57,479 nt of DNA, filler included, from Circinaria calcarea (GCA_051942165.1; 7 parts of 7 records of this genome joined end to end with filler, not necessarily neighbours in it); one strand, 5' to 3'. Positions 2,487-49,359 are shown, counted from the whole stretch's first letter. Numbers and translations are program-made. Notes: a model not told the origin generated them from the sequence alone.

Positions 2487-3717
2487 GGCAACAAGTGCTC
2501 TACCGACAATTTTAGGTTCGATAGAATATTCAAGTGGTTCAAAGTTCACCGAGGGATTTGTCGTGGTTTTATGGTACGAGTAGAAGAGTCGGCGGGGTCA
2601 AGTATTTCATCTCTCGAGTATGAGGCAGGCAGAGCGGATCACGTGTGTCGTCTTGCCGAGCGATCTTACATCCCACTCGCAATGAAAGGTCCTAGAAGAT
2701 AGGCAGAGTTGAGAAATCTAACTTGAGGTCGAGCTCAGTCCAGTTCTCTTGCTGGAGTTGAATTCGAAATGCTAGATGTCTGCCCTTTGTATTCTAGACT
2801 TGGAGAAAATCATCTCATCGCATCCACCAACTGGCTCGCCTTCGTTTTCACGTCACGACCTTCAGGCCCTGAACAGTGGCGGTCCCCAGACGATCATTGT
2901 GGGTGGTGTGATGCAGAAGTGTCATATTTCTTTGAATGCAACTTTCATTCACCAACTATCATGGACGTCGTGGCACGGAGGGACCTGTATATCATAGGGA
3001 AGTCGAGAGGGAAGTTGGGTATGTCTTATATTGGGTTTCTTCGGGATACGAGAAATCCTTCAACTGACGGTTGTGCTTTGAGGCTGGATGCCGAGGAGAT
3101 CAAATCAATGTTTAAGCCTAGCTAGGGACTAAGTAATTCTACCATGTACAGGACCTCTGAATCGGGGTAAGTAGAAGTCCACTCATTCCTCTCAAGTCTT
3201 CTCGCTTCATGGGCCTATCTCAATCCCCCGGAATCCCAAAGAGCTCGAAGAATGATACACGGAGCAGGCCCTCAAAGGTGATCGGGCCGTACACATCAAA
3301 GCCGAGGAGTAGGTTATCCCGCACCGTCAGAGTCCCATCGGGTCTCTGCCGGACTGGACGAAGCGGACGATAATCGAAGAACATCTGTTGACAAGAGGGC
3401 TTCGTCACGCTCAAGAGAACAGGTTGTGGGTGAAAAGTAACTGAGCGTGGTAAGGGATTTGCTGCCGAAAAGGAAAGGCGAACCTGGCTTAGAGCTTGCC
3501 AGCTTTGGTGCCCGTCTAACACGATTTTCTTTGTAAAAGAGAAGCCCGTTCCTTCTAAGGTCAAGGTTCAGTTTGAAGACGGTAAGATGTGAAGAGATTT
3601 TATGTGACTAAGTATACATCATAGCGATAAGCAGTTGCACCCACCATCTCAAGCCGCTGAAAGTCCACGTTCCGGATATGCTTCTCAATTCTCCGAGAAG
3701 ACTGGAAGCAACTAGTC

Positions 3718-5485
3718 TCATAGCTGCGCTCTCGGGCGGTCCTCATACCTAGTGATATGGTCATATTAGTAGGTTGCAAGGAACGTAATCGGGCGGTCAC
3801 CCACTTGGTCCATGCTTCGTCAAAACCGGCGGAACGAACCCAGGTGTCGCCTGTGTCTTCAACCGAATCAATAACTGTGGCAATCGTCAACATATGACTC
3901 CATTGACTGTTTAAATCGGACTAATTTACCCATATTGGCGAGTTGCGACCACATTGCCTGTTTAATTCTAAATCTTCCACTCTCTTCATATGGCTCGCAT
4001 ATTTCTTTTCCATGAGCCAAAGCTCGAATGAATTTGCTAGCATGGCCATCATCTTCATGCTCCTTGACTCTGTCGAAGATTTTCTCCCAAGAACCAGATG
4101 ATGATAACGCTTCCTTGGGCCGATAATTGACAATTTCCTCGAGGAGAGGTTGCGGTGACCTTCGGGAGGCGTACATGCATAAGTCAAGACGGCCCTTCCA
4201 CTCCAAAAGTCGAGCCTTGTTGGCATCACTGATCCAGTGCTGGTTCAGGAAGGACGAGTAAAATATTGAAGCATTCACGCAGTGCATATAGTAAAAGTCG
4301 AATTTGATCTGCTTTGGGGGGTGCTGAGCTCCGCCAGTAAAGTACGCTAAGGCGGCTTTCGATCAGTCTTTTCCCTTAATGGCGTTTACCACAATAACCC
4401 ATACCTGCTGCATTGGTCATTTCCGCAGTCCTCGGCTGCAATTCGTCGATGCTGACGTTCCACTGACTCGCGTAATTGATCATTTCGTCTGATGCCCGGG
4501 CGAGTATGCCGTCCCGAATCTTATTGCCATCGTCCCAACGGGCAGCACTGCTCAATTTCCGATCCGCCCGGACTTGGTCAAGCAAGTCCACAAGACTATG
4601 AGCATCATTAGTCTTGCCACCAGCTCTTGCTACTTGTTCAGCCCCTTTGAAGAATGGAGTCAGCCAATTGTCATGAACGGCGGCCTGGGCAAGGGCCTCT
4701 GCAACAATTGCCGGCTGTTTAAACTCCACACCAAACCCAAGGTGGATCAGAGGGTGGAGGAAACCTGACCCTTCGGTTAGTTCTCCTGCAAAGGAATCGA
4801 CAGAATAAAACTAACCACTATATGTCCTTACGAGCAAGTCTTCTGCTCGCTCATTCCCTTTTAAGAGATAATCGTTGATGACCTCTTCGACCCCTTTCTT
4901 GTCGATCTCATTCTGGAAGAAAACCAGATAGTCGTGGTAATACCTTTCATTTCCCAGGCACTCTTGAAAGTTGGCGGGGTCGTGGAGGTCTTCCGCAACG
5001 CCATCAATTAGGGTTTCAGCGTGTCTCTGGTACGATTTGTTGTTATCGTAGTGCCTTTGAATTGTTGCGGGTGATGCGCCCAGGGCGTAGAGTGTGAGGA
5101 CATGATGGGCGATGTGATCTACAGTAGAACGTCAGAGTAGGATGTTCGACTTGACGCAAGCATCCGTTCACGTATGGGAATGCCTGGAACAATCACTATC
5201 CTCTAAAGTCGCAAAGTGGTCGGTAGAGAATCAGGGGGTTAGAACCTAAGGAGCCCCAGACCAAAGTTCATCTTCAGAAAGTGGGTGCTAAAGTCTACAG
5301 GGTAAACAGTAAACCGAAATTTTCAGCTTACTGTGAAATCCTTCCTGATTGAAGAAGATGTGGTGTTTTTCGTGGTTTTGCTGCAAAACCTCCGAAGCCT
5401 TGGCGGCGGATTCTTCGGTGATACCCTTGACATGGAAAACGCCGACGTCTTTGATTGAAAGGTGGATTTTCGAGGCAGTCGCCAT
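3718..5485 (-). CDS. HypA / questin oxidase-like oxidoreductase (AflY-like family), multi-exon
   Basis: Manually spliced exons give HHIFFNQEGFH-NHIAHHVLTLYALGA, FLHPLIHLGFGVEFKQPAIVAEALAQAAVH, FDFYYMHCVN, DDGHASKFIRAL and WVRSAGFDEAW. A last GT-AG intron yields the terminal exon YEDRPRAQL*. Confidence 0.85.
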
Positions 5486-6192: not shown

Positions 6193-8134
6193 TTAGAGCT
6201 CTGCCCGCTGCGCTTTTCGCTTTTGGTGTTCTCGAGCCATTTTCTTGAACAGGGGATTGTGTTTGCCCTTGAGCTCTTTATTCCTGCTCTTGTTGTATTC
6301 GATGTAGGCCTGAGGAGAGTAAAGTTAACACAGAAGAGAAATAACCGAAAAGATCAGTGGCGAAGTGCTTACCATGTCTTGGCCGCCACTCAACTCGCTA
6401 AGCATACCAGCTGTCCGCTTTGCACCTTTCCTTGCTACACTGCTCTTGCCTTTGGGGCCCCCGGATCGAGCCCCGAATAAGTCGTCATCAATCTTCTCTA
6501 CATCCGCAGATGTTTCGTTCTGTAACATGACTTCCTGAAGGAGTTCTCTCCGTTCGGCAGGGGAAGCGTACGCCAAGCCTGGTAGGTTCTCGATCCCCTG
6601 TAGATGCGTGATAACTTTGAAAGCATAGCCCTGATCGACAAGAAACGCTTGTCGTTTCGAAGAATAGTACATCTCTTGAGTGTCTTTCGATACCAACGAA
6701 TAGAAAAATGCGTTGAATCCTTCATCATTTCTGCGTTTGGCCCGCAAGATGCGACCAAGGCGCTGTGCCTCCTGCCGCCGAGAACCATAATGTGAAGAAA
6801 TCTGAATCAGGCATGTCGCCTCCGGCAAATCGAGTGAAGTATCGCCAATCTTGGAGAGAAACACGGTGTTGACCTGATCGTTGTGTTGAAAGTTCTCCAG
6901 AATACGGAGACGCTCGTTTTGGGGGGTACCACCGTATATGTATGCTTTTTTCAGCTTCAACGCATACTTCTCCAAGGCATACACGTTATCTGAAAAGACA
7001 ATGACCTTATCGCCACGCTTTTCATGGTAATCAATCAGAAACTGACAAGCCTGAAACTTCCTTGGATTCATGATATAGAGGAGCGCTCTTTTCCTGGACG
7101 ATTCTCTCAAATACTCCTGATAAAATTCCGTAGTCATTGGGCACCACACCTCCGCGCATTGTACCTTGGCAATGTGCCCTTGCTCAGCGAGCTCCATCCA
7201 GTTAGCTTCGTACAACTTTGGGCCAATCAGGAAATTGAGATCTGTGATTTTGTCGCTTGGAGGTGTCAGTGAACTCCCACAATATGATTAACAGAGTACA
7301 ACAGACCAGCTACCTACTCTTCTCGAAGCAGCGTGGCCGTGAGACCCAGCTTAGAATGGGTTGCAATCTAGAGGACGGATAAGCATTTGTTACTTTTCGA
7401 TCTAAAGGGAAAAGCTTACCGACGAAGTCACTTTTCGGAAAATACTTGCGGGAACGACGTGAACCTAAGTTTCCGGGTCAGCAGACACTCGCAGGGAACG
7501 ATCAATCCTAGGTGAACGGACTTCGTCAAGAATCTGATGGGGTGTTAGTTGCGATGCTTGATTTTAGGTAGTGCTAGGACTGGGATATACAACCATTAGA
7601 CCCCACTCCCGAGATTGTAGGAAGTCCATCATCTTTTGAGCATCGTAGGACCGCGATCGTGTTTGTGTTACCATTGAATATGTTGAAACAATAATACCAG
7701 TACTCCGTGAAAATTTCTCTTTATGATCCGAAGTGAAAATGGCAATGTCGTTGGGACTAATGTTGGACCACTTAAGGAACTCATTACGCCACTGAACCAC
7801 ACTCATGGAGCTTGTGCAAAGAACGACGACCCCTTTCTTAATCGTGCAGCCGGCTGTTATGCCCACCAAAGTCTTACCTGCGCCGCATGGTAGCACGATG
7901 ATGCCACTTCTCGCTCGGCCGTTGCTGAACATTTTGCCCAGGCTCTTTTCTTGATATTGTCTGATTAGTGTGTTGGGCTTCAGATCGATATCAAGATTAG
8001 GGTTGAGTCGATCGTTCTTGAAGTCGTATTCCTCCAGTACTGGGAAACCAAGCTCCAGGCATCTTTTTTGAACTGACTCTACGCCTTTAGCTGGAACTTC
8101 AAAAGAATGTATGTGTCTGTCATCATCGTCGTCA
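6193..8134 (-). CDS. SSL2: TFIIH helicase XPB (Ssl2/Rad25), 5'-truncated by the gap
   Basis: Walker [15 protein letters not shown] (split across microexons), [27 protein letters not shown]. Last exon reads [14 protein letters not shown]...RAEL*. Confidence 0.96.
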
Positions 8135-8234
8135 NNNNNNNNNNNNNNNNNNNNNNNNNNNNNNNNNNNNNNNNNNNNTTAATTAATTAANNNNNNNNNN
8201 NNNNNNNNNNNNNNNNNNNNNNNNNNNNNNNNNN
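8135..8234. other. Artificial contig linker (N44-TTAATTAATTAA-N44)
   Basis: 100-bp N run with a central six-frame-stop 12-mer; identical to the five other linkers. Confidence 0.98.
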
Positions 8235-8339
8235 TCTCCAACCCTTCCCCCCTCTCACTTTTCCCCCTCTCACTTTTCCTCCGAAACCATCTCAACCCTC
8301 ACTCTAATCCTCCCCACCCACGATCTCGAAGGAAAATAG

Positions 8340-8634
8340 GTTGCTGGTGGAAATAGTATGCTTTCAAATCTCGAAGGATCCCTTCACCTTTGCTCGTGCT
8401 CAGGTGCGGTATACCTCGCTTACGGATTTAAGGTTAGGGGTTGAGGTTGTGAATGGGTTGTTTTCTAACTGAGGGCTATAGAGCTTGTTGACTTACTTGC
8501 TTCGGAGTCGGTACGAAGAGGTGATTCTCTCTGCTCCGCGGCTCCTTTGCAGTCTGCTTTCTGAATTTGGGTTCCAAACCCGGGGGGGCCGGGGGGCGCG
8601 CGATAGATGGAGATGGTTAAGCGTATGGATATAA
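8340..8634 (+). CDS. Possible last two exons of an unidentified gene truncated by the gap
   Basis: Branch site and AG acceptor before 8340, GT donor at 8404, CTAAC...TAG acceptor near 8479. Spliced reading LLVEIVCFQISKDPFTFARAQ/SLLTYLLRSRYEEVILSAPRLL looks protein-like but is not recognised. Confidence 0.3.
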
Positions 8635-8937
8635 ATTATTATTCGTTCCTGCTATTACTTGTGGATTAGGGGGAGCTGGACTGGGAATGGAGAGAAGGGA
8701 GAAGAAGGATTATGGTGAATGGGAGGAATTAAGTTGTCGATATCAGAAAAACGTCCGATGGCCGCCTTTCCGCTCCTTCATGGATCAACGACCCCAATTC
8801 TTTTCATACTCTAACCCTCGCAACCTCACACGACCAAACATTTGCCGTATAAAAATGCTATCTCCTCTTTCGGCTCAACCATACAATCAACGTCCCCCCA
8901 CACTTCTCCTCCGTCCCTTCTCATTTCCCATGACCAC

Positions 8938-9537
8938 CTAAATAGCCTTCACCCACACTTCAGCCCTCTGATGCGGCAGCGCCTGCCGCATCTGCATCAA
9001 CACCAACGCCATTCCCGTGATCCCATCGCTGATAAACCTCGCGCCCTGCGAACCCAGGTGCTGTACGAATTCCCAGTGACCGTCGCTCCTTTGGCGGTAG
9101 AGTTTGAAAAAGACTATTTTGATCATCAGCCAAAAGGTGATGATATAGGGGGAATGAAGGTAAAATAACATACTGGTGGCTTCAGCCTCCAGACCTCTCC
9201 TAAATTCCTCGATCCAATTTAAAGCATAAGCTCCCGCGGGCAGGTAGAAGATCTTGGAGCGGATGCCGTTGTCGAGGTTAGGGGAGAGTCCGGAAGGTGA
9301 CTGCGGTGAGATATAGTAGCAGATTCCATTGCCGCGGGTGGATAGTAGCTGGGGTTGGACATCGTTTAGGTTGAGGGCAGTGTTAGGTCGGTGGAAAGTG
9401 AGGGAGCGGGGGCGTCTGCCGATCCGGATTATGGGCGCTCGGAGGCAGTGGGGCCTTGCGTCGCCAGGAGAAGGGCTATTGATGATGGAGAGGCAGAGGA
9501 GGAGGGAGAGGGTGAATAGGGTTGGGAGAATATGCAT
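8938..9537 (-). CDS. Small putative secreted protein of unknown function
   Basis: ATG start with a hydrophobic signal-like N-terminus (MHILPTLFTLSLLLCLSII). Contains a probable 60-nt in-frame intron at 9114-9173 (GTATGT...GCTGAT...TAG). Confidence 0.55.
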   Translation of the reverse strand: MHILPTLFTLSLLLCLSIINSPSPGDARPHCLRAPIIRIGRRPRSLTFHRPNTALNLNDVQPQLLSTRGNGICYYISPQSPSGLSPNLDNGIRSKIFYLPAGAYALNWIEEFRRGLEAEATSMLFYLHSPYIITFWLMIKIVFFKLYRQRSDGHWEFVQHLGSQGARFISDGITGMALVLMQMRQALPHQRAEVWVKAI

Positions 9538-11795
9538 AGGACTGGGTGATTGGTGAAGGAGGGTTTGTGGCTGAAAATATTCAGATTAGGTAGGATGAGA
9601 AATTGGGAAGCGAGTGAAAGAGGCATTCTCTGTATGACAACTCGATAGTAAGAAGACAATGGAGCGCATGTCGTCTAGTATTTGCATCGCGTTGCAGTTG
9701 GAGCTTCCTGGAACGTCCGGGGCGGCAGAGGCGGAAGAAGGGTTGTAACTGTGGTATACTTGTTTCAGGTTTTGAGTTTGAGAACGACATCCATTTAAAG
9801 AAAGTCACCATGCAGCGCTGACAATCTACAGAGTTCGAAATTCCTGTGTCGTTGCCATGTTATGGAGCGGCCGCAAGCTCTTTGCTCCTTTACCAAGCCA
9901 GAGTCCGATGGACTCAATGTCATTCTAGCCAAGGCGAAGATCTATTTAGTAAATAGAAAATAACAGCTGTACGTATGGACAATAAGCTAAGGTCTCTGGA
10001 TGTATTGTTATACTGTCATTCTGGTCGGTTGAACTGAGCCATATCCCAAAGGAAGATCGAGCCGGAGAGAATTTCAAGGGGGTTCGACGTACGGATTTTC
10101 GATGATGGATCTCTGCTGAATGAAGAGGAATTGGCTCCGATATTAGATGCGGCTACGAGAAAAACGACGTTAGTTAGCATCTGCTACCAATCAAATCTTC
10201 CTTCGAAGCAAATCATCATGTCTACCATCTACACTTACCACCTCGGCAGTTCGCAATTACTCACCTGCTCCAAGCCAATTCAAAGATGTTCACAAGTCCG
10301 GCCAAGGTCTGGCCAAAGGCGGGCAATCCTTCCTTCTTCTCCCCAGTTTGACTTCTGCCTCCTACAATCTTCTGGTTCGATCACCTTTCTGTTCCCCCCT
10401 CCAGTCCACTCAATCCCGTGTTCCTTGATGCTTTTCATACTCCTCTCTAACCATGCTGCATACCTTCTGGGTAGGGTCCCACGAACGATGGCATGTTTTA
10501 CACCTCGAGTTCCCTCATACACCTTCAACTCCGAGTAATCACTTCACACCTATCTAGAATGCCATCGTATCCAACAATACCTTCCCAGGATGCCCAGCAG
10601 CATCCGAGATAGGCGTGACAAATTTCGAGATCCAGCTTTTCCGATCCACTGAAATATTGACTCGATATAATCAGGATTAGAGCATCCCTCGTCATCAAGC
10701 CTGATGAAACATTGAAAACCTCTGATCTGAGAATATAGAGAGGAGAGTGGACAAGACGCGACGGGTGATGTGCGAAAACTGGCTCTTCAAGCCAGGGGAA
10801 AACTTGAAGCTAGTTGCAGCCATAAAGGACAGAAATAGCTTCACGATGAATTGATCTTGGGAGACGGTGGATAACAGGACGTAGAATCCGAGCTAAAAGT
10901 GGCGTTCTGTTACCGGTTACATGGAGATCACACAGATGAACCTCCTCCGGTGTCTATGTGAGGAGTAGCTTGTAGATTTGGTTCCTGATTTCGGAGGTAA
11001 GTTGAACAACAAGACGGTACTACGAGGCCTCGAAGCCATATTGACGTAGGACAATTGAGGCGATACTGGTGATCAAGACGAAGACCATATTGTGGAATTG
11101 TTCTAATACACGTGAAGATAGCTGAAAGGTAGAAGGTTTGGGAATAAGCCACGATCTACGTTTGATATGGGGCTAGTATGTAATCGGCAAAGCCACTTTG
11201 AAGCTTTGTTTGGTAGCCGATCCCTGCGTCATTCCAACCGGGCTAAGTCTGGGAGGCCGATACTCTTCCCCACGTTCTCTTCACAGGCACTAACAACCCA
11301 CTCCATATCACGGCACTGAGGTATACGAGGAGGAAATCTGACCGGGGCCGAAGAAGACTGATGATCGGGATGATGGGGCAGCATATGACTGTAAGTATAG
11401 AGGACGCTGCTGCCCATTGGCATCCAGATCCGTCCTTTCCCCGACTTGCGCATTCCGTTCAGAGCTCCAGAAGCCTGCATCACAACGTGACAGGGCATCT
11501 CACCCACGCTTCCTAAGAGATATGAGTTTTCTCTAAAGAGCAAGTTGCTGATGCTGGCACTGGTAGATATAAACGACCAAGATTGACTCTTTACGACCCC
11601 AACTACCTAAGCTTCAAGGGTCTTTGTTTTGGCCAACATCGCCCTTATCTGGCACCCCTAATCTCACGTGCCCCAACAAGCTTTGATAATACCGGCGACT
11701 TTCAAAGGTATTCATCGAATCTCGTTAACATCATCAACCTGGCAGGGAATAAAGGCAGAAGGTTCTCCAGGGAAGGAGGAGGCCTGCTCAACAGA

Positions 11796-13633
11796 ATGTT
11801 CGGTACCTCGTCAAGTCCGCCAAAGGACAACGAACCGCCTCTCTCGTCCCCTACGCCATCAAAGCCGAGCAGCGGTCCAGGGAGCATCCCGAGTGATGCC
11901 TCCTTGTTCACCGAGAGCGAGATCAATAGTCCTGGGGGCGAGAAAAGAGACAGCCTGACCTTGGGCTCTGGACACAGATCGACCGATGACTTGGGCCCAA
12001 GTGGAGAGAAGAAGCGGAGAAGTAGTGGAGTAGCTAAAGCTAGTGCGCTCTTTTCAAGTGCGAAGAACACCTTTCACCTTTCGTCCTCGTCGCATTCCTC
12101 TTCGGAAGGTGCACAGTCTCCGCAGACGCCTATGCAGAAACTTGGAAAAACCGACCCTGTCCTCAGCGTACCCCAAGGTTCGCTGAACAATTCGGCTGGA
12201 GAGTCACGCCCAGGGCCTAGGTCAACTTTTCGTGTTGGTGTGACAGAGGATAAGAACAAGAAATGCAGACGCACAATGGAAGATACTCATGCGTATCTAT
12301 ACAACTTCTTAAGCACACCTGCCCCAATGATAGGAATAGATGTTGGATCTAACTCGAGCAAGAGTGATGTGTCAAGAGAAGCAACTGATTCGAGCACCGA
12401 TCTTACGGCCACCTCAAGCATTGTTGAAACAGACAATGGGTACTTTGCAATTTTCGACGGTCATGCGGGTACCTTTGCGGCGGATTGGTGCGGTAAGAAA
12501 TTACATGTACTACTGGAGGATATAATACGAAAGAATCCTAACTCGCCGATACCCGAACTTCTGGATCAGACCTTTACAAGTGTTGATCAGCAGCTTGATA
12601 AGCTTCCTCTGAAGAACAGCGGGTGTACGGCGATCTGTGCAGTTTTGAGATGGGAAGATAGGATTCCCAATCCCCAGTCGGCGACCGGTTCTACGGCGAT
12701 TGCACCCGCAGCCGCTGCTGTTATTAAAGCGGCCACGGAATCAGACAAAAGCAACGGCGCGACAGATTCTGCTTCTAGTCTAGCACCCCAGATCAATTCT
12801 ACGAACCCGACATCTAATTCAGCTACCGCCTTACCAAAACTCCAAGAATCTGCCTCACGCCAACGGGTCCTCTATACCGCAAATGTCGGCGATGCACGAA
12901 TTGTCCTGTGCCGGAACGGAAAGGCTCTCAGGCTTTCCTATGACCACAAAGGTAGCGATGAGCATGAGGGCCGACGTATCGCCAATGCCGGAGGACTGAT
13001 TCTTAACAACCGTGTCAACGGCGTCTTGGCGGTGACTCGAGCCCTTGGTGACGCCTACATGAAAGATTTGGTCACCGGACATCCGTATACTACGGAAACG
13101 GTCATACAGGCTGATATTGACGAGTTCCTGATCCTGGCTTGTGATGGTGTAAGTCATTCCTTGGGGGTCGGAGAGATGATATATGCATCGACTAACGGAG
13201 CACGCAGTTATGGGATGTATGCAGCGATCAAGAAGCAGTTGATCTCATACGACACACCCACGATCCCCAGAACGCATCGAAACAGCTGGTTGATTATGCC
13301 CTCGGCCGTTTCTCCACTGATAATCTTTCCTGTATGGTTGTCCGCTTTGACAACAAGGCGCTCCAGCAGACTGTGGAACGGAAGACGGAGGCCATCGGCG
13401 TTGAGGGCGATCCGCCTTCGAACAAGAAAGGCGGCATCAGTGAGGCAGATGCGATCGTCCGGGAGGCTCGGAAGAGCATGGGCGACATCCAAATCGACGG
13501 GACGACGGAGGAGAGGGCAGGAATCAGCCAGGAAGTCATCGAGGAAGAGGGGGAGAAGGAGCCGGGCCCGGAATTGGATCTCAATGGAGCCAAGATCTTG
13601 GCAAACCGCAGCAACCAGGCGTCCAGCACCTGA
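11796..13633 (+). CDS. PTC1: Protein phosphatase 2C, Ptc1 type
   Basis: [35 protein letters not shown] and LACDG/LWDV across intron 13149-13207 (GTAAGT..CTAAC..CAG), then [12 protein letters not shown]. Confidence 0.93.
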
Positions 13634-14335
13634 CCGGATAGGATGTGTTCTCTTTTGCGTTGTACTTGTTGATTCGACCCGATTTGGCACTGGAGTTGTA
13701 CCGGCCGACACGGTACGCCTGGCTTTGAACGGGAAGGGAGAGGTGACGAGTATGCAAAGCTGATTGATGAGGCTTCTGGAATGGACATTGTTTTCTGCAG
13801 CTTTAGGACACAATTGCCATGAATGACTGGCGCAAAGGACGCGGATCCGGGTGGGAGAGGCAATCCGAAGAGCACGTAGTATCTCACCTGGTCGGGTCAG
13901 AATAGAATCGGAAGAAACCGCCGAGGCTGACCCATTCGTGCGACTGTCCGAATTGACATGTGTATCATAGAGTATTGAACACGAATGAAAGGGTTACTGC
14001 GTTCTCTTCTGTATTCGCCGAGGCGCCCTCTGCATTGCTCCGGATTGGTTCACGACATGCTTTACGTCCGTCGTGATGGTATAAGGATAACTCTACCGTG
14101 GTGACTCCTCTCGGAAATAAGACCGCGGATTTTCCTCGCCGGCCTCCCATGTAATGTGCCCCAAACGGCAAAGTCGGCCGGAAGAGGATCTCTCGTGCCC
14201 GAATTAGAATGGGCTCATCCCTGCACGGCGAAGTCATCGGATTACTAGTCCGGATATTTTTTCTGGGAGATAAGAGGTCAGCTTCTTCATCGCAACGCAG
14301 CATCATCCGCTCCTCTCGCATCGTCCAACTTTGTA

Positions 14336-16135
14336 ATGGCAGCCAAACTGGTCGCCAGACTTCCAATTGCCTCAGCCAGAGCTTCTCCTACCTTCTGCCC
14401 GACTGCTCGACGCACCTTCACCACTTCCCTACAATCTTCTCTCGTTCCCCGTCCACGCCCCATACCTAAATCAACCTTCTCCAGATCAACACTTCAGCAG
14501 ACCTTCAGACGCTCATATGCTCATCAGATTTCGCCGGTGACCAAGCGGAGAGGTCGGGGCTTTTTTAAATGGACATGGCGGTTAACTTATCTGTCGGCGA
14601 TCGCTGGGACTGCGTGGTTAGGGTACAACATCTACATCCTGAGGACACCTCAAGAGCAGTTCGAACCTGATCCATCGAAAAAGACTCTGGTGATATTAGG
14701 TATTAATACCCCACACAACCCCTAGGTGATGGCAATTGATAGGTAGTTGGTAGGTACCGGCTGGGGCGCCGTTTCCCTCCTGAAGAAGCTCGACACCGAA
14801 AATTACAATGTCATTGTCATCTCCCCTCGCAATTACTTCCTCTTCACTCCTCTTCTGCCATCATGTACCACCGGGACCATCGAGCATCGCTCAATCATGG
14901 AGCCCGTCCGAAACATCCTCCGACATAAGAAAGCCGCGGTCAAGTACTACGAAGCAGAGGCTACCAAGATCGACTACGAAAAAAAGGTTGTATACATTAA
15001 CGACGACTCTGAAATCAAAGGCGATGTGTCATCAACAGAGGTGCCTTTTGATATGTTGGTGGTTGGCGTTGGCGCCGAGAATGCGACATTTGGTATCCCC
15101 GGTGTAAAGGAGCATTCCTGCTTCCTGAAAGAAGTCGGAGATGCCCAACGGATCCGAAAACGGATCATGGATTGTGTCGAGACAGCGAGTTTCAAGGACC
15201 AATCAGAGGAAGAACGAAAACGATTACTACATATGGTTGTTGTAGGAGGTGGTCCTACCGGTGTTGAATTTGCTGGCGAACTCCAAGATTTCTTTGAGCA
15301 GGACTTGAAGAAATGGGTCCCAGATATCACGGACGATTTCCATGTCACTCTCGTCGAAGCCCTTCCCAACGTTCTCCCCATGTTCTCCAAACAACTAATC
15401 GATTACACCGAGTCAACTTTCAAAGAAGAATCCATCTCCATCCGGACGAAAACAATGGTCAAGAAGGTAACAGACAAATACATTGAAGCCGAATTCACCG
15501 GACCCGACGGTAAGAAACAACTCGAAAAAATCCCCTACGGCCTCCTCGTCTGGGCCACCGGTAATGCCGTCCGCCCCGTGGTCAAAGACCTCATGTCTCA
15601 AATCCCCGCTCAAAAAGACTCGCGCCGCGGCCTCACGGTAAATGAATATCTCGTCGTCAACGGTACGGAAAATGTCTGGGCCGTAGGTGACTGCGCCATC
15701 GCCAATTACGCCCCCACCGCCCAAGTCGCCAGCCAAGAAGGCGCCTTCCTTGCCCGCCTCTTCAACTCCCTCGCCAAAACCGAAGTCATCAACGCCGAAC
15801 TCGCCCAGCTTTCGGTGGCGCAAGCCAAAGCCACGGGCGAGGAGCGCAACGAAATCTTCAACCACATCAAAGCTCTGCAGAAGCAGCTCCGGCGAACCAA
15901 GCAGATTGGGCCGTTTGAGTACTCGCACCAGGGCAGTCTAGCGTACATTGGTAGCGAGCGGGCGGTGGCGGATATCAGCTGGCTGAGCGGAAACTTTGCG
16001 AGCGGGGGCACGTTGACGTATCTGTTCTGGCGGAGCGCGTATCTGAGCATGTGCTTTTCGACGAGGAACCGGGTCTTGGTGATTGTGGATTGGCTCAAGG
16101 CCAAGATGTTTGGGAGGGATGTCAGTAGGGAATAG
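14336..16135 (+). CDS. NDE1: Mitochondrial external alternative (type II) NADH:ubiquinone oxidoreductase
   Basis: Arg/Ser-rich presequence, a TM segment, LVILG/TGWG FAD-binding motif across intron 14700-14753, VVVGGGPTGVEFAGE, WAVGDCA and PTAQVASQEG. Confidence 0.92.
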
Positions 16136-16361: not shown

Positions 16362-16461
16362 NNNNNNNNNNNNNNNNNNNNNNNNNNNNNNNNNNNNNNN
16401 NNNNNTTAATTAATTAANNNNNNNNNNNNNNNNNNNNNNNNNNNNNNNNNNNNNNNNNNNN
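16362..16461. other. Artificial contig linker
   Basis: N44-TTAATTAATTAA-N44. Confidence 0.98.
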
Positions 16462-16893
16462 TCGATGATGAGCAACCGCCCTTGGATGCGATTTGGGAAG
16501 CCATGGTAGGGAGTGACGGTAAAGCCAAAGTGGTGAAGCCTAATCAGGCAACTGTGCTAGTGCCGTTTCTCCAACCTACATTGCTCATCTGCAAGAACTA
16601 ATTCGAAGACGTGATAGGCACCCGCAACAGAATCCGACTATCTGTACGACCTAGATAAAACAACGCAAGAAACGCTAAACGTTCTGCTGGACTGGCAGAA
16701 AGACCATGCCGGAGAAGGCGGCGGCCAAGTCTCCGCTTTCGAAATGATAATAGACCTTCCAGCATCTCCTATCTCTCTGCCTCAGCTCCAACGACTCCGT
16801 AGGCAGTTCATCTCTCTGAATCGTCAGTATAAGCTGCCGAAGAGCAGAATACGGGAGTCATTTGCCGCGTACCTGAATGATAATTTTCAATAA
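16462..16893 (+). CDS. KTI12: Elongator-associated protein Kti12, 3' part (absent from the ORF track)
   Basis: Manual translation with one intron (~16560-16617): PPLDAIWEAMVG...VVKPNQATVL/APATESDYLYDLDKTTQE...LPQLQRLRRQFISLNR...FAAYLNDNFQ*. This matches the Kti12 C-terminus as recalled. Confidence 0.85.
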
Positions 16894-17349
16894 ACTGATT
16901 CTCCTGAAGCTTACGGGTTCCGGAGATGAGGTGCCATAGACGTGCACGGGGTCATCTTGACTAGGTCTCAGTGTTTCTAGGCAGGTCAGATATTTTAGTT
17001 GTGCTAGAATACCCCTAGATATGTACCGGTTAGAAAATCTCAACTAGCTCTCCCAATAACTTCTTTCAGCCTCCACAAGATTTTCGGACCTTTGCTGAAA
17101 ATAATCTTACTGCTGTCGGTTTTCTTTCCGAGTTGAAATATCTTGGACTCATGTATCTTTGTTGTGTACGGATCTCGTAGCAAATTTTCAACCAGTCATT
17201 TCGTTGAGAAAGAATTCCATAGATTGGAGGGTTCTAAAAGTATATCACACAACTTTTATGTGGCTAATGACTAGGCATTGCCCCTCAACCAGTTTTATCT
17301 TAAGTTGGTAAATCTCCGTCTATACATCTCTATATCTGTATATGCTCAG

Positions 17350-20300
17350 TTATCTACGCGAACGTGCCGCCTCGTTCTGTAATCGTTGATCCATCGTAAT
17401 CGACTCCAGCTGCTCCTGGAAATCCTTCGTGATGGCTAGGACAGTCTTAAGATGAGTAACATTCAGTCTTCCATCTCCATCGGTCTCATTGGCCTTGCTC
17501 CGGGCCAGCGATAGCGCCGACGAGACCACATTACGAATTTGCCGGCCGTTCAACTTGTTCTCGCTGCCGTATTCATCAATGAACTCGAGGATGCCTTCCG
17601 TGTTCTTGATGCTGTCAGGGTGGAGCTGTGCAAGAAAGATGCGGAAGATCTGCTTCTTCTGAGCCTTTGTTAAGTCCTCGTACCGGATCGCGAGGTGGAT
17701 ACGCGATTGGACTGCAATGTCCAGGACGTTGATGCGGTTGGTTGTTAGGATCATGATACCGTGGTAAAATTCAAGGACGCGAAGTAAAACTGAGCTGAAT
17801 TAGTAAAGCTCCTCCCAAAACCACTTTTCATCTGAGATTCCATACCTGATACGAGGGCATTCCGGTTAGGTTCCGAGTTACTCGTACGTGCCTCTAAAAA
17901 TACATCGGCTTCGTCGCTAATTCCATAGTAAGTGAATAGCTCGAACTCGTGTTAGAAATGTGGGATTTGACCTACACAAGCAAGACAGCCTCCCATTTGC
18001 CAGCAAGGTAGAACATTTGTTCCAAGTTCTTTTCTGCTTGAGAGGCATTGAGGCCAATCTCAGCGACGCTAACAATAAAGAGTGGCCTTCCAGTAGCTTC
18101 AGCGATAGTCTCCGCTGTGAGCTAAACCACACATACAACCGTGAGTAGTCGGCTCTCACTTTTTTTTAGGAGTACTTACTGTTTTTCCTACTCCAGGAGG
18201 ACCTTTTCACATTAGTAGCACTCATCAATGAGGATGGATCCGCATTTAACTGACCATGCAGTAGAAGAACAAGGCCTTTCCCCTTATCCTCGACGATGTC
18301 TTTTACTTGAGTCCTGTCACCTGATCTGTCTCCTCCTCTTCCTTCGTGCTCGTTTACGAGGGCTTGAATCATTGATTTGTATTTCTCATCGAGTTGAAGT
18401 TGGTTTTTGAACATTGATGGCTGCTTTCCTGGGACGTCTGAGGTTTGGTCAACGCTGAACTGGCCCCACATCTTCTCCTTTGTCGAATAGCCTAGGAATC
18501 TCGGCGGAAATAATAAGAAGGCATCTTCATTAGGATCCTTTCCCAACCCATTGGCTAATCGACGGGCTTCGTCTAACGACTCATTCAAATCTCCAACCCA
18601 ACAAGGTTCTTTGTCTCCGAGTATATGAACACCAGCTCCTAAATACCCATTAGCTATACGTACTAGCCCCGGGTAGCACGACAACAAAGCGAGGATTACC
18701 GTACTGCAAGAAAGCTTCGGGGTCAACAATAAACTTTCCTTGGACCTAAATGGCATGTCAGCTCTAATGTCTTAGCGGGTATACCTGAAGCACTTGCCAC
18801 GACTGTTTTCCGATGCTGTTTCTCCCTTAAATTTGAAGAGTTCTTCTCGTCAATGTTTGATCGACTCTCGTCTTCCTTTTCCGGTTGTTAGTGAGCTAAG
18901 TGCTATCTTTGAGATCCTATACTCACGGTTTCGTTTTTGATAGATCTAATGACACTCCGTCTATCAGACAGGGCCTCACCTTTATAGGAGTACATTTGCG
19001 TTGAACCAGGCCCGCTTCGGACAATTTTGTTGTACTTAGCTCCTCGCATCTTCAGTACTTTGAGGAGCTCTTCCTCATCTTCACTAGTACCGTCTTTGTG
19101 ATATTTGATCGGGTAGCAAGGGAGTAGGTTGATACCCTTGGTACCTCGAAACTTTTCAATATCCAACCAATAATATACTTTGCTCATCTCCTTCCCATTC
19201 CAGTCCCAACACCATGCAAGTACACTTAGCGTTCGGGGAACAGGTGTCTCATAGGGAATCGGTGCGGCCTCAACTTCGAAGACCTGAAGTGTGTTCAGGA
19301 ATGGCTTTGCGACTATTTTAGTCTTTGGAGGAAACAAGGTCCACATGGTCTCGTAAGTTGTGATAGCAGCATTAAGGTTGGAGTCTCGCGTTTTGAAATA
19401 TTTCTCAAGCTCTGGTGCGGCCCTCACAGTATCCAAGAGTCGTGCAAGATCTTCGCGTGCTTGTTTCTTATTTGGTAGATCATCTGGGTTCGGTGTCGCT
19501 GCTGCTTCGAGCTTTTCCCAACTATGGACCTAGTTGAATCACTAAGGTCAGCAATCGAAGAATACTTTATAAAGATCACATGAGACAGGCTTAACTACTG
19601 AATATTGTTGTCCGATCCGCCGAATGCTCACTTACTAAGGATGCGAATGGTGCGCCCATTTCAACAGTGTCACCATCCAAATTCTGCCCAGGATAATCTG
19701 TCCCAATCTGTTCTCTAAGCAGATCACGGAGCCCTTCTGCTTCGATGTCGATTTCACTAATTGCATCTTTGATCCCAGTTTCTGGGTCCATTGTCCTCCG
19801 AAAGGTGAACGCTATGCCTCCATCATTATTCCTTTTCTTGAATTCACCGAGATCAACGTCTTCTTGGGCTCCAGTTGTCTTATTCCATTGGCGAACTATA
19901 TTTCGGTACCTCGATTTTGCCTTCTCGTCCTCCGTCTTCTCCTTGTCGGCGGCCTTGTTTTGGTCCTTGGGGGCCTTGTATATCTACATTAGATTATTTA
20001 CTCGTCGCGTAGTAGGAGCTGCATCTTCCGCAAGCTTGCCTAATCATACCTCGGATACCATTTTACTCTCATTTGAGTTCCCATTTTCCTTGTCGGCCTT
20101 GGAGTCGTTGGTCTGTTGCACTCCCGACTTGTCTCCGTCTCGGTCGATAATCGTGTCAGGGAGTTTCTTCGAATCAGCATTGAGAAGAGCTTCTAGCTGA
20201 GCAATGCGCTTCTCAAGTAGCTCCGCGTATCGTTGCTGCATGCTAAAGTCTACGCTGACGGGCAGCTTGTGTGTCACACATTAGCAAGGTAGCTGTTATG

Positions 20301-20369
20301 GACGGAAGAAGAGCTTACCGCTGAGACCCCATTGGTGTTCGAGTTCGAGTTCGAGTCCTCAGCCGCCAT
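17350..20369 (-). CDS. Fungal AAA+ ATPase with DUF7025-like N-terminal region, multi-exon
   Basis: Spliced Walker A LLLHG/PPGVGKT/LTAE, Walker B VLLV/DEADVFLEAR, NALVS/VLLRVLEFYHGIMILTTNR, SRIH and lid motif LNGRQIRN. Upstream blocks YETMWTLFPP, WDWNG and FRGTKGINLLPCYP. Start MAAEDSNSNS at 20369. Confidence 0.9.
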
Positions 20370-21193
20370 TGTTGATTTTGACTCCGGTTCACAGGTCTAA
20401 GGAGTATTCCAGCACCAGCGGGTATGGAGCACAAGCTACAGAGTAAAAGTTGCCGACTGAAAGCCTTAAGACGTGAGCGGTTCTTGGACGGGTGAGAATT
20501 GGGCCGTATTATTGAGCCCCCACACCTTGTACTCCATAAAATTGCCCGCAACCCTCAGCCTCGCCAGAAGGAAGCCGTTTCGAGGGCCTCGCTTCCTTTC
20601 CATCTTACAATTGGGTGAGATTGTGTAGAGATTAACCATATTGTGTTCCGGAATTTCATATACATGACCAATTCGATTCATTGCGTCCATAACCTGGTCC
20701 CTATTGGCCAACTGGGCCACTCAGAAGGCAATAGGAATGAGCGTGAACGGGCAGCCGCCCCAAAGGATTCCCTTTAGCCGCGCTTACAGCAGCTGGCGAT
20801 ACGCCACCCGTTCAAGCCCCACTCCGAGGGCCCACTCAATATTGAGACCATGGATGGATTTCCTGGCGAGACGCCAGTAGTATGCATATGCAGGGCCAAA
20901 TTGTCAATTTCTGGGACTTGTAGAGGTCCCTTTCCAGTTTGACGCGAGGAGAACGATGGTGTGAGGCGTTATTCCAGTGGCGAACTGATGGCTGCTGTTT
21001 TGCAATTCCAGGCTGGAGGTGATTTGCATCCGCCATTTCAGCCTCATCGATTGCGGCGTTAAATAGATGAAAGGAGCCGGTGGGGGCCATTTACAGGGGC
21101 GGCAGGACGGGTTGCGAAACCATATTTCAGGTGCTTTCCTTGCAGTTGAATGGAAGAATAACACTCATTCAGGTCTGTAGGCGCATCATCGAG

Positions 21194-23687
21194 ATGGACT
21201 CCTCCGTGTTACTGGACCCGATTGCACAAGATGCCGCTGACGAATTGGTGGATAATACAAATGAAAAATGGTTCCAAAAGCAAGGGACTGACAGCGCTAA
21301 TGAGTAAGTCTACCGAGATATTTATTTTACATCAGTGCTCCGTATATGAGCCCAGTTTATACTCAGAAGTCTAAAGCATGGCTACTTGGAGTATACTAAT
21401 GCAGGATGTATTGCATCCGCCTGAAGCTTGCCAATCCCTGTTGTGGTAGCCTGTTTAATGCGCTACATGTACTTTTTTTTAATTATATCTCGAGCCCGAT
21501 TGGGACTAATCTATATGGTAGTCAGGTCCTACGGCCTGCCAAAGAAGCTATTCAAGGACATGGTTACTTTCGGGATAAGCTCCGGTTGGGCTCAAGAAAC
21601 AAGCAAGCGAACGCAAAGATTGCAAGTACGAGGACTGCCTTGGAGCAGCAAATTGCCGAATATAAACAAGACTCCAACTCCTTCGGCGATTTGAGACAGC
21701 AAGCAGCCGATTACATTACCCAGGCGAACGGCTTCCATAAGAAATATCAAGAAGACCGAACGACTGGTGCCAAGAAGATTGGGCGGTACGCCCAAAGCTT
21801 TGTAAACAGCTTTGCCGACTTTCTGTCGGTGTATTCCGGTATTATCGAGTTGCTTAAGGGAGCAGGACAAATTTACGGAACTGTGGCATACGAGACATTA
21901 TCGATTTTCTTTATTGTATGTTATCTTCGAGACTTTGCAAAAGCACGCCGAGAAGCTGATTGATTTAGATTGTTGTAAATAAAACCGGCAACGATACTAA
22001 AATCGCGGACCTTCTTTTCGAGCTTCGAAAGTCCTTCCCGCAACTAGATGACTGGGTCAATATATACCCTACCCAATCAATAAAGCTGTTGGTGGCCGAG
22101 GTTTATCAGCAGGCTATCCAATTTGCAAGGAATACGTCTAAATATTTCGCCCATTTTTCAAGTAAGGAATTCTCTATAACTCATCAGTTTATATAAAAAG
22201 AACTAAGAAACCTATTCAAATGTTTTCGAGGCCTATTTCTCCATGGGTCAAGTTTTGTTGATTTCTCTAAGATGAAGTCTTAACCCAGATTGGGCGTAGG
22301 GTGGTAGATCAAGAATATATTTGAGATATAAAATTTACTTGACTGTGATGATTCTCTCGAGAAGTACTCATTCGAAGAATTCTGAGGCTGAAAACGAAGG
22401 TGACAGCTAGGCTCTGGATGGCCATTGGAAAACCTCCATCCTTAGGTATCGATCAGACTGTGGCTACACTTCATGCGAAGCTTGCCGAAGTCAATTCCGA
22501 GGCTATGATTCAGCTCCACAAACGAAGCCAGAAAATCCATAACACAGTGGAAGACAACAACGCCCGTATCAAGGAGCTAAAGAATTCTAACCACGCCCTG
22601 GAAAGATCGAACATGGTTCTAGTTAGCGCTCTCGAGAGGCTCGAAGCCCAGCACCAGAAGTTTGTACAGGAAGTTGAATGTACGTAACTTTGAGAATTCT
22701 ATACACTCTGCAGCCAGTCTATAGGCACCTAACGAATGAGTATCCTTCTGAAACAGTAAAGGATCAACAAGATGATAAGCAACAGCTAGAGATATTCAAA
22801 GAGGCATTAGGCGTAGGTTCATCTGGTCTCATTCTTGGTGCTTTGTCCCGTCCCCCCAGAAAGCACGTGGTTTGAACGGAAAATGACTTGCTCAGGTCAC
22901 CTACCCGTCTCCGGAAACCGAGCTCGAAGCCTGCAAAAAGAGTCAACTTAACGCATTCGCAAAGCTACCCAGCCATCGGCGAAGTCCAAAAGTAGAGTAC
23001 ATGCAAATGAGCCCAGGATTACTCTCTACATCCGAAGCCTATCAGAAATGGCAGGACAGCGCTCAATCCTGCCTTTTGCTTTTAAGTGGCCGTACCGCAT
23101 CGGAGGGACGCAATAGTCGTGGCGACACTCACTCCTGGCTCTCTCCGGCCACGACGTACGTTACCGAAGAATTGCGGAAGCAAGACCAAAGGGTAGCGTA
23201 TTACTGCTGCCACCCCGATCTCCGCGCCGAGGACCATTCGGGGAAAGAGATCATCTCGACAATCATATACCAGATGCTAGACTGGAAGCCCGCTATTCTC
23301 CGTCACCGAAACCAGCAATTCCGATCAGTGGTGCAGAGTCCGGCGTGGCAAGATCCGGGAGACGAGAGCGCATCCATTGAAATCATGTTCCGACTAGTGC
23401 GCGAGATACTCGCTGAGATCAAGGACTTGGGTAGAATCACCGTGGTGTTGGATCGTGTCGATCTGTGCAGCTGGGAATTACACCATATCATGAAGGCACT
23501 GACGGGACTGGTTTTGGACGAGTCGTGGCACCTGAAGATTATGGCCACAATGGCTACGGCGCGTGACTACTGGGATGTTGATGATTTGGATGACACAGCC
23601 AGCGGCCGCGTTCTAATCCACCAGGGCTGGGATCAGCGGCAACTGACGCCGCAGGAGATGCAGAAACGGCTTCATTCGCCGCACTGA
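21194..23687 (+). CDS. NACHT/STAND-like protein with helical N-terminal domain, degenerate P-loop and no C-terminal repeats, multi-exon
   Basis: Exons splice in frame: FLSVYSGIIELLKGA..YGTVAYETLSIFF/IVVNK..IYPT..LVAEVY, a coiled-coil-like stretch, then YQKWQDSAQSCLLLLSGRT, VAYYCC, IISTIIYQML, ITVVLDRVDLC and LKIMAT. This is the layout of the N-terminal half of a fungal NACHT domain. Confidence 0.7.
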
Positions 23688-24587
23688 AGAGAAAGTATAA
23701 TGGTATCCCTTAAATTGTTGCTCCGGCAGCCCGAACCGTGCGTTTCTTGGATCACGCTTAGGATTGGTCAATCTAGGATGGCACGGACTAGTTGCTGGGG
23801 TGGCATGGCTCGGGCTGCCTGAGCAACAGTTTTAGGCGACACAAGCACAACAGAGCGGCATACGGAGTAAGTTGAAGATTAGTAGAAATAGAGCACAGAA
23901 AACCTTGACCTGCCCAGATGGAAGAAAGCACTTCGGGGTTTCAGTCAGCGTTTGGCAAACAGCCTAGAAAAATCCCTGTTTAAAACTGTCCACGGGAGGT
24001 GCACGCATCTAATGAGGTGAATAGAATTGATTAATTCTGTTTATGCCCGAAGGTCAGGCTTTAAGGCCCAAAAGCCTTTGGTTAGCCAGCTAACCTGCTC
24101 CTTCCTTCGCATAACAAAAGATTTAGACTTTGTGACTAGACTTTTTGCTCCTGTCGGGAATTTCATTGCCATACATAATTTACAGCCATCATTCCTTCCA
24201 CAAAGCAAATCATATCACTTTTACCAATCACTGCCACCCCTATGCACCTAGCAAAACCGAAGTCGAGTGTAGACTGGAAACCCCATCCATTTATTCTATT
24301 CCATCGCAGCCTTTTATCCTCCTCTTAACCGTCCACCCCCCCGCTCCTCCTCCCCACACAGACTCCCCAAACCATTGCCTACCTACCTCACCACGGTCCA
24401 ACCACCATCTTAAGGTTTTTCCGGTTTTCAAAAATCCCGACTCCACACCTTTTCCTTATTCCCTCTAAGAAAACACGATAGAAGCTAGAAATCCCCGCAT
24501 TCCTGTTTTTCTCCCAGTTTTATTTCTCCAGTTCAAACTTCGAGGAATTGCTTGGAGTCTTTTCGGCTTTGCCCGGGAGTGGGGGGG

Positions 24588-24687
24588 NNNNNNNNNNNNN
24601 NNNNNNNNNNNNNNNNNNNNNNNNNNNNNNNTTAATTAATTAANNNNNNNNNNNNNNNNNNNNNNNNNNNNNNNNNNNNNNNNNNNN
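24588..24687. other. Artificial contig linker
   Basis: N44-TTAATTAATTAA-N44. Confidence 0.98.
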
Positions 24688-32812: not shown

Positions 32813-32912
32813 NNNNNNNNNNNNNNNNNNNNNNNNNNNNNNNNNNNNNNNNNNNNTTAATTAATTAANNNNNNNNNNNNNNNNNNNNNNNNNNNNNNNN
32901 NNNNNNNNNNNN
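32813..32912. other. Artificial contig linker
   Basis: N44-TTAATTAATTAA-N44. Confidence 0.98.
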
Positions 32913-41036: not shown

Positions 41037-41136
41037 NNNNNNNNNNNNNNNNNNNNNNNNNNNNNNNNNNNNNNNNNNNNTTAATTAATTAANNNNNNNN
41101 NNNNNNNNNNNNNNNNNNNNNNNNNNNNNNNNNNNN
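41037..41136. other. Artificial contig linker
   Basis: N44-TTAATTAATTAA-N44. Confidence 0.98.
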
Positions 41137-49259: not shown

Positions 49260-49359
49260 NNNNNNNNNNNNNNNNNNNNNNNNNNNNNNNNNNNNNNNNN
49301 NNNTTAATTAATTAANNNNNNNNNNNNNNNNNNNNNNNNNNNNNNNNNNNNNNNNNNNN
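49260..49359. other. Artificial contig linker
   Basis: N44-TTAATTAATTAA-N44. Confidence 0.98.

Follow-up and report, generated by a model that had tools for sequence, protein, structure and literature searches.

Fungal genes related to NOD-like receptors (NLRs) are numerous, and few of them have a known mechanism. The commonest type of N-terminal domain among these NLR-like genes, according to the parts of two surveys that deal with them, is the Goodbye-like domain, which has no assigned function (PMC4986451, Table 1; PMC9815663). The relevant passages of PMC9815663 describe it as a four-helix bundle in common with HeLo and MLKL that carries an N-terminal extension, assign it no definite function, and put forward the speculation that oligomerisation under non-amyloid control might follow once the extension is displaced. 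Here we report on a locus in a 57,479-nucleotide stretch of DNA from the lichen-forming fungus Circinaria calcarea (GCA_051942165.1), hereafter the window, in which a gene for an AAA+ (ATPases associated with diverse cellular activities) ATPase and a gene for an NLR-derived protein with an altered P-loop, hereafter the partner, lie head to head. We refer to them as gene A and gene B where the two proteins are discussed together.

Like the fungal NLRs with Goodbye-like N-termini that are treated in passages of Dyrka et al. 2014 (PMC4986451) and Wojciechowski et al. 2022 (PMC9815663), the partner places a DUF7708/Goodbye-like domain before an NPHP3_N/NACHT-type core. Those NLRs combine a NACHT or NB-ARC domain with WD40, ANK or TPR repeats, whereas the partner has no Walker A lysine, no canonical Walker B, no arm and no repeats, and unlike them it has a long helix between its domains and a fixed AAA+ neighbour. 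Survey methods that demand C-terminal repeats, as set out in part of PMC12258605, would not list the partner family. Single-residue non-canonical P-loops, NLR-NLR clusters and head-to-head NLR pairs are reported in portions of the three fungal NLR surveys (PMC4986451, PMC9815663, PMC12258605); neither the partner family nor its AAA neighbour is mentioned in those portions, and the supplementary tables of these papers could list members.

In bacteria, the closest described arrangement is a ternary system of a MoxR ATPase, a vWA protein and an inactive STAND (signal transduction ATPases with numerous domains; iSTAND) protein with N-terminal effector or Death-like domains, as presented in the pertinent part of Kaur et al. 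2020 (PMC7159879). There too a STAND core predicted to be inactive, with an N-terminal domain of effector or adaptor type, stands beside an active AAA+ ATPase in a conserved neighbourhood. This parallel had been drawn in a first-pass annotation of the window, made from the sequence alone, and as an account of that literature it was accurate; the parts of the two systems differ. The closest solved relatives of the fungal ATPase by sequence are p97/Cdc48 D1 (E 6e-16) and NSF, which places it near the classical AAA clade rather than MoxR. The pair also lacks a conserved vWA neighbour, only two genes being kept between the window piece and the metagenome loci L001, L009 and L010. The fungal genes are also eukaryotic, divergently transcribed and intron-containing, and the bacterial systems are themselves predictions. 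We see no sign of common descent of the two systems, and the likeness would be one of analogy only.

Among fungi, the parts of PMC4344463 and PMC3321046 concerned with NWD2/HET-S and related pairs describe an NLR-type gene lying beside a second gene to which it is coupled in function. There, the NLR is active and uses an amyloid motif to signal to a pore-former of the HeLo type, whereas here the NLR-like protein itself has the Goodbye-like domain and the neighbour is an ATPase. Gene A belongs to the DUF7025-AAA-AAA_lid_13 family (PF22942, PF23232), to which its orthogroup adds an N-terminal helix, LLEKRIAQLE, and the fixed neighbour. The literature that we searched contained no mention of DUF7708, DUF7025, PF24809, PF22942 or AAA_lid_13, no characterised member of the family, and no description of an ATPase/pseudo-NLR pair in print.

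Linkage of the two genes

The two genes are a real and old two-gene unit, from which we infer a biochemistry and a biology: our reading, held with slightly better than even confidence, is that filamentous ascomycetes have long inherited them together as a unit, with the ATPase acting in trans on the NLR-derived partner. Both members were found in three other named genomes, and they are adjacent, by consecutive locus tags, in all three (Table 1). JGI metagenome contigs scanned with the family alignment gave 14 further loci, in which AAA genes were sought by tblastn. In all four of those with sufficient upstream sequence, the ATPase gene lies on the minus strand upstream of a plus-strand partner, and the two genes are head to head as in the window. 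The other ten are uninformative: L002 has 1050 bases before partner residue 40, which the spacer alone could fill, and in the remaining nine the alignment begins at residue 60 or beyond, with fewer than 150 bases ahead of it. Including the window, this makes seven independent paired lineages from Lecanoromycetes, Geoglossomycetes and Sordariomycetes, with no counter-example among the cases checked. The prospect raised in the first-pass annotation, that the two genes would prove unlinked in other genomes, was not borne out, since they are linked in three named genomes and three metagenome lineages.

These results also make it extremely unlikely that the locus is a chance juxtaposition of two large families with a truncated, decaying NLR as the partner. 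DUF7025-AAA and NACHT-like genes are numerous in ascomycetes, the window contig is short, and the deposited model of the ATPase gene, P0003, is imperfect; against this, adjacency recurs in every case that could be examined, the short architecture and altered loop are common to a family of 249 representatives, and the partner frame is open and aligned end to end with its orthologues.

The neighbouring AAA genes share 40-63% identity over 207-767 positions and have the LLEKRIAQLE helix in common, as compared with 31-34% identity between more distant AAA family members and the Xylographa orthologue P0004; the paired AAA genes are orthologues. The paired partner proteins share 25-52% identity. Across seven pairs the pairwise identities of the two proteins co-vary (r 0.71, a value reached by 23 of 5040 permutations), as joint vertical descent would predict, so that the co-variation is not an independent sign of interaction. 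A FastTree phylogeny was built from 91 rows, namely 87 of 153 sequences (the window exon and 152 matches) with at least 180 of 263 columns filled, and four additions. The eight rows from known pairs all belong to one 47-row clade (support 97). They are spread over its subclades, and pairing is therefore probably ancestral to this clade. No fusion of ATPase and partner was seen among the longer homology matches or the 150 listed partner relatives.

Conservation between loci does not extend past the two genes. A tblastx comparison of the window piece, L001, L009 and L010 found similarity limited to the pair, and the flanks of L009 hold a P450, an F-box protein and an amino-acid permease. The spacers in L001, L009 and L010 measure approximately 0.8-1.2 kb, and no conserved motif was found in them, the window spacer matching those of the three loci at chance level (best blastn E 0.03). 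Nine 10-mers are shared by three of five spacers, against a null mean of 0.07; this excess arises because the spacers of L001 (1360-2330) and L011 (190-950) are 96% identical over 740 bases, plus one further locus. A 13-base string common to the L001, L011 and L010 spacers in the same orientation is too little for a motif.

The spacer and flank comparisons bear on a second explanation, that the genes are linked and functionally independent, held together by a shared compact bidirectional promoter or by a gene order not yet broken, with no mutual action. Head-to-head pairs can persist through shared regulatory DNA alone, and the identity co-variation is expected from shared descent alone. We nevertheless regard independence as rather unlikely, because the pair persists over three classes at the identities given above while its flanks are replaced, because the spacers have no conserved sequence that would explain a regulatory lock, and because an NTPase core without the Walker A lysine beside an intact ATPase fits a functional link.

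The partner protein and the ATPase

The pair was first read as two multi-exon genes with open frames that diverge from a spacer of about 820 bp, and this outline holds, with proteins of 803 and 605 amino acids and a spacer of 824 bp. Given the strong Pfam matches in both frames and the orthologues in other fungi, the pair as read from the sequence is more than chance. The 605-residue partner model aligns end to end with P0001, P0015, P0021 and P0178, and with a single first intron (21304-21521) its N-terminus matches the Geoglossum orthologue P0001 gap-free, the conserved residues standing at matching intervals in both. Models of 625 and 645 amino acids are also open and were rejected, as they carry an extra segment absent from orthologues. 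The 625-residue model includes a 64-base segment (21405-21468, plus strand) with usable splice sites that keeps the frame open and has no counterpart in orthologues; the segment is probably intronic, possibly an alternative exon.

Of the partner's domains, DUF7708 matches orthologues at 3.9e-21 to 1.9e-30 (72-106 bits), and among 43 family members Pfam finds NPHP3_N in 39 (E up to 1), DUF7708 in 32 and Goodbye in four (best E 1.2e-4). The protein-atlas clusters closest to the partner's N-terminal 330 residues carry DUF7708, Goodbye and NACHT_N annotations side by side, which we treat as a lead only. The C-terminus lies about 45 residues past the sensor-1-like strand. The helical and winged-helix arm and C-terminal sensor repeats are absent from the partner, and no repeat family appeared in Pfam scans of the window exons, the orthologues or the 43 members. 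The NPHP3_N core and short C-terminus agree with the NACHT-like layout, ending early and without WD, ANK or TPR repeats, that the first-pass annotation had described.

At its Walker A site the window partner reads LLLLSGRTASEG...SWLSPA (SGRTASEG...SWLSPA), without GK[ST]. The Walker B site reads VVLDRVDLC: it retains the first Asp, has Arg in place of the small residue and lacks a DE pair; the NACHT Walker B motif is given as hhhhD[GAS]hDE in the part of PMC12258605 that defines it. Both sites, including the strings SGRTASEG and LDRVD picked out at first reading, stand in the 605-residue frame. To place them in the family, the partner's last exon was used in a full HMMER scan over one protein per 50%-identity cluster, which gave 249 representatives at E<=0.001, 109 at <=1e-10 and 30 at <=1e-30. 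The 150 of these 249 that were listed are no longer than 631 amino acids, and their matches run to the C-terminal ends, with the exception of one 874-residue row, P0161, a doubtful member with six short matched stretches that is unaligned at the loop.

Loop statistics come from 152 matches aligned to the last exon, of which 138 cover the loop region. W[LIVM][ST] opens the helix after the P-loop in 135 of the 138, giving the family pattern SG-x-T...SWLSPA; DR.[DE] occupies the NACHT Walker B site in 135 of 136 rows, and a Lys is found in the strand after Walker B in 103 of 105. The lysine position itself is variable in the family, where R, I, L, G, H and other residues occur. Because the motifs are kept family-wide, the altered P-loop site is judged to be under selection, which argues against neutral decay. 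The partner is not, as the first-pass annotation had allowed, an NLR decaying neutrally; its altered loop is a conserved family feature, and the protein is presumably inactive as an NTPase. The closest available DNA, loci L001-L014, encodes proteins only 30-46% identical, and synonymous sites are therefore saturated; motif conservation serves here in place of dN/dS. P-loop-less family members also occur in Zymoseptoria, the wheat pathogen genus (Z. brevis and Z. tritici strains), where P0098 and its cluster have models of 393-631 amino acids; P0098 sits inside the 47-row paired clade of the tree on a long end branch.

A model of the last exon, folded with an alignment of the window and 123 of the 152 matches (short fragments and P0161 left out), has a mean predicted local distance difference test score (pLDDT) of 95.7 and a predicted template modelling score (pTM) of 0.92. 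It has a strand, a 17-residue loop and a helix at the place of beta1, P-loop and alpha1, and a 15-residue insert parts strand from helix where GK[ST] normally sits. Foldseek returned weak matches of this core to AAA+ proteins, ORC chains and MalT (best E 1.6e-4, TM 0.27-0.40). VIA, which is independent of Foldseek, returned Cdc6/ORC, Sir3, Avs3, Dark, Apaf-1, MalT and a STAND-TPR protein at Z 10.2-11.2, with alignments of 150-178 residues at root-mean-square deviations (rmsd) of 3.2-4.4. Judged by the model, the core has an AAA+/STAND-type P-loop NTPase fold, in line with what the annotation had expected of it; the search does not separate ORC-like from STAND-like. Sir3 is an AAA+ fold retained as a non-catalytic interaction module. 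Its AAA+-like domain and ORC/Cdc6 are among the best structural matches (Z 10.5-11.2, 150-168 residues, rmsd 3.2-3.8), with the STAND cores of Avs3, Apaf-1, Dark and MalT within 1 Z unit, whereas by sequence the partner has no detectable relationship to Sir3, ORC or Cdc6 and its Pfam match is NPHP3_N. A PDB sequence search with the partner family profile gave only coiled-coil noise (best E 0.019).

The full-length Geoglossum orthologue P0001 (585 residues, pLDDT 85.7) is modelled as helical over residues 22-223, followed by a single 89-residue helix (230-318) and then the core. Searches with this model by Foldseek and VIA matched the C-terminal core only.

With such a fold, the partner could in principle still be a working switch, its loop (G65, T67, R72 and S80-W-L-S-P-A) together with R187 and K214 binding a nucleotide or phosphate ligand, and would then be a sensor upstream of the ATPase, not a passive client or adaptor. 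The invariance or near-invariance of these residues, the very high confidence with which the core folds as an NTPase domain, and the 13 of 138 relatives that read G-K-T at G65-x-T67 all favour this possibility. (A G(x)K[ST] string occurs in those 13 rows, and in the rows inspected it is at this position.) We consider it improbable in view of the variable residue at the lysine position, the insert between strand and helix at the GK[ST] place, and the invariant Arg that replaces the second acidic residue of the NACHT Walker B.

The ATPase, by comparison, is a regular fungal member of the DUF7025-AAA-AAA_lid_13 family that keeps all catalytic motifs, and it is predicted to be active. Its 803-residue frame, in which all introns are GT..AG, aligns unbroken from end to end with P0004 (Xylographa), P0008 (Trapelia), P0164 (Geoglossum) and P0168 (Neoarthrinium). 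GPPGVGKT, DEAD, TTNR and SRIH, the motifs already credited to this gene, all occur in the spliced frame; in 15 orthologues G-P-P-G-V-G-K of Walker A is invariant and its T nearly so, and Walker B, sensor 1 and SRIH are invariant or nearly invariant. We take the catalytic roles of these last three to be those of AAA+ motifs in general. The AAA profile (PF00004) scores only 12.8 bits on the window exons, because four small exons each encode only part of the domain; whole orthologues score 63.5-74.6 bits (cut-off 21.2), with all three domains above Pfam cut-offs. The N-terminal helix with consensus LLEKRIAQLE (window 20230-20290, minus strand; ATPase residues ~26-45) is kept in all AAA orthologues, and was detected even at the cut end of locus L011.

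Proposed mechanism and its standing

If the ATPase acts in trans on the partner, the two proteins could work as follows. The pair would be transcribed divergently from its common spacer of ~0.8-1.2 kb, and gene A would give a single-ring, classical-clade-like AAA+ ATPase with a DUF7025 N-domain; AAA+ N-domains of this sort usually recruit the client. Gene B encodes an NLR derivative that keeps the Goodbye-like (HeLo/MLKL-related) domain and the NACHT-type alpha/beta core. Its Walker A lysine has been lost, as have the sensor repeats and the helical and winged-helix arm, and it has gained a helix of ~90 residues, probably for self-association. Such a protein would no longer run its own nucleotide cycle, and A would supply the ATP-driven step in trans, binding B via the N-domain and remodelling or disassembling B oligomers, and so controlling exposure of the Goodbye-like domain. 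The LLEKRIAQLE helix of the ATPase could pair with the partner's long helix. A complex prediction that covered Geoglossum AAA residues 1-510 and partner residues 100-585 gave a score of 0.00 and no verdict for or against contact. In terms of the non-amyloid control speculated for Goodbye-like domains, the ATPase would be its provider in trans, through this remodelling or disassembly of the partner.

The ATPase may activate the partner or restrain it. Of the two, a restraining, antidote-like role would best fit genes that are never seen apart, and co-regulation alone would be a simpler explanation of the same pattern. Going one step further, we suggest, tentatively and with some doubt, an ancient ascomycete cell-death or immune switch in which an NLR-type oligomerisation domain, having abandoned a nucleotide cycle of its own, is driven or checked in trans by a dedicated head-to-head AAA+ remodelling ATPase. 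The sole basis for a cell-death or non-self output is that Goodbye-like domains otherwise occur as N-termini of fungal NLRs. The role of adaptor or substrate that the first-pass annotation had assigned to the partner, and the role in defence or non-self recognition that it had assigned to the unit, are unsupported.

Several points weigh against a co-inherited unit with an ATPase acting in trans. Moderate divergence and apparently one pair per locus are unlike the usual pattern of fast-diversifying immune receptors. The putative likeness of the partner's N-terminus to HeLo and MLKL is taken from the literature on Goodbye-like domains, and the conserved R72, R187 and K214 would allow the core to bind a phosphate ligand. 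As for linkage, the orientation has been established in the window and in four metagenome loci only; of these, L001 and L011 count as one lineage, the same or sister species, because of the identity of their spacers. Two further partner clades (19 and 18 rows), with Letrouitia, Fonsecaea, Gyalolechia, Lepraria and Geoglossum umbratile, lie outside the 47-row clade to which the evidence of pairing applies. Six more named proteins of the 47-row clade (from Glutinoglossum, Podospora appendiculata, Thozetella, Xylariaceae sp., Cladorrhinum and Xylariomycetidae sp.) have no AAA gene of the same species among the 21 AAA matches listed, and about ten species with an AAA match (Xylographa parallela, Talaromyces stipitatus, Hyaloscypha, Clarireedia, Hymenoscyphus, two Monosporascus, Cercophora, Pyrenula and Hypoxylon) have no partner among the 30 partner matches whose names were checked (17 named). 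Both lists are partial, and species with one member only are unexamined rather than negative; the 21 AAA matches were drawn from the 8000 candidates sharing most words, in a family with a nearly invariant ATPase core, and the partner matches comprise a single protein for each 50% cluster. The named AAA matches belong to few genera, with the best-sampled genera, Aspergillus, Fusarium and Neurospora, absent among the 21 listed, which hints, weakly, at a patchy distribution of the AAA orthogroup.

Since the pair is kept across Lecanoromycetes, Geoglossomycetes and Sordariomycetes, each protein has a concrete candidate partner. Should the coupling prove real, signalling modules of the NLR type can pass the ATPase step to a separate protein, and an entire class of NLR-derived genes escapes those NLR surveys in which repeats or an intact P-loop are required. 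Were the switch reading true, the predicted iSTAND systems of bacteria would have a eukaryotic counterpart in this pair, and DUF7025 ATPases and a Goodbye-like domain would each receive a first assigned role. These consequences would be of interest for fungal immunity and for AAA+ biology.

Locus structure and features of the window

The window consists of separate contigs of ~8.1 kb placed one after another, each junction being marked by two runs of 44 N that flank 12 bases (8135-8234, 16362-16461, 24588-24687, 32813-32912, 41037-41136 and 49260-49359). The spacing of these runs is ~8.2 kb and falls by one base each time, which indicates that the contigs were sorted by length. Because the pieces are separate contigs, the genomic context of the pair is the piece 16462-24587 only, on which the AAA gene and the partner gene are the only local context. 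Coordinates of the two genes, and of the paired genes in other genomes and metagenome loci, are collected in Table 1.

Table 1. Features of the gene pair in the window, and paired genes in named genomes and metagenome loci
Feature	Positions	Strand	Basis and details
Contig piece with both genes	16462..24587		8126 bases; bounded by N linkers
AAA+ ATPase gene	17350..20369	-	11 exons, 803 aa, DUF7025 + AAA + AAA_lid_13; spliced frame, Pfam, orthologue alignment
AAA gene exons 1-6	20369-20319, 20265-20050, 19983-19636, 19529-18927, 18875-18785, 18738-18700	-
AAA gene exons 7-11	18638-18255, 18202-18180, 18121-17976, 17916-17846, 17789-17350	-
AAA exon 4, DUF7025 N-domain	18927..19529	-	PF22942, E 6.7e-20, 71.7 bits (cut-off 27)
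Mini-exon with Walker A GPPGVGKT	18180..18202	-	Spliced frame; first G completed from the end of the preceding exon
Walker B, DEAD (LLVDEADVF)	17904..17915	-	Spliced frame
Sensor 1 and putative arginine finger	17695..17745	-	Spliced frame; TTNR (LTTNR) 17734-17745, SRIH (QSRIH) 17695-17706
Last AAA exon with AAA_lid_13 lid domain	17353..17787	-	PF23232, E 4.1e-12, 46.8 bits (cut-off 27)
Spacer between start codons, presumed shared divergent promoter	20370..21193		Gene models; 824 bp
Partner gene	21194..23687	+	6 exons, 605 aa, DUF7708 (Goodbye-like) + long helix + P-loop-less NPHP3_N/NACHT-like core; gene model, Pfam, alignment
Partner exons	21194-21303, 21522-21915, 21969-22161, 22407-22679, 22757-22812, 22896-23687	+
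Partner exons 2-3, DUF7708 (Goodbye-like) domain	21522..22161	+	PF24809, 1.6e-10 (41.5 bits) in exon 3; 0.0022 at end of exon 2
Partner exons 4-5, long helical (coiled-coil-like) stalk	22407..22812	+	Weak coiled-coil family matches only
Last partner exon, NPHP3_N/NACHT-like alpha/beta core	22896..23687	+	PF24883, 2.2e-11, 44.6 bits (cut-off 24.8); stop codon directly after
Pseudo-P-loop	23070..23150	+	Translation, model; strand CLLLLSG, then RTASEGRNSRGDTHS, then WLSPA opening the next helix
Walker-B-like strand ITVVLDRVD	23436..23462	+	Translation
Trapelia coarctata pair			Partner MMC30_009404 (P0015, 52% to window exon), AAA MMC30_009405 (P0008); both on an 18362-base contig
Geoglossum simile pair			Partner M1840_001541 (P0001), AAA M1840_001540 (P0164); both on a 48874-base contig
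Neoarthrinium moseri pair			Partner JX266_013201 (P0178, 90% cluster of P0084), AAA JX266_013200 (P0168)
Metagenome locus L010	AAA 6246-3386, partner 7773-9889	AAA -, partner +	tblastn
Metagenome locus L009	AAA 7264-4348, partner 8772-10756	AAA -, partner +	tblastn
Metagenome locus L001	AAA 1280-1, partner 2446-4337	AAA -, partner +	tblastn; AAA cut by contig end
Metagenome locus L011	AAA 135-4, partner 1304-2862	AAA -, partner +	tblastn; AAA N-terminus only, E 3e-6

The deposited protein of the AAA gene, P0003 (Q9187_005206, from a Circinaria calcarea metagenome-assembled genome), is 98% identical to AAA exon 4. At 573 amino acids it is shorter than our 803-residue model, from which it differs in lacking the last part of exon 4, exons 5-6 and all that follows the Walker B region.

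On the other pieces of the window we noted genes for the C-terminal part of an XPB/RAD25 helicase (6328-7287, minus strand), a PP2C phosphatase (11526-13760, plus), an NDH2-type oxidoreductase (14747-16132, plus), a DEAD-box helicase (42287-44287, minus), a zinc-type dehydrogenase (44504-45127, minus) and an NDT80/PhoG-like DNA-binding protein (45929-46798, plus).

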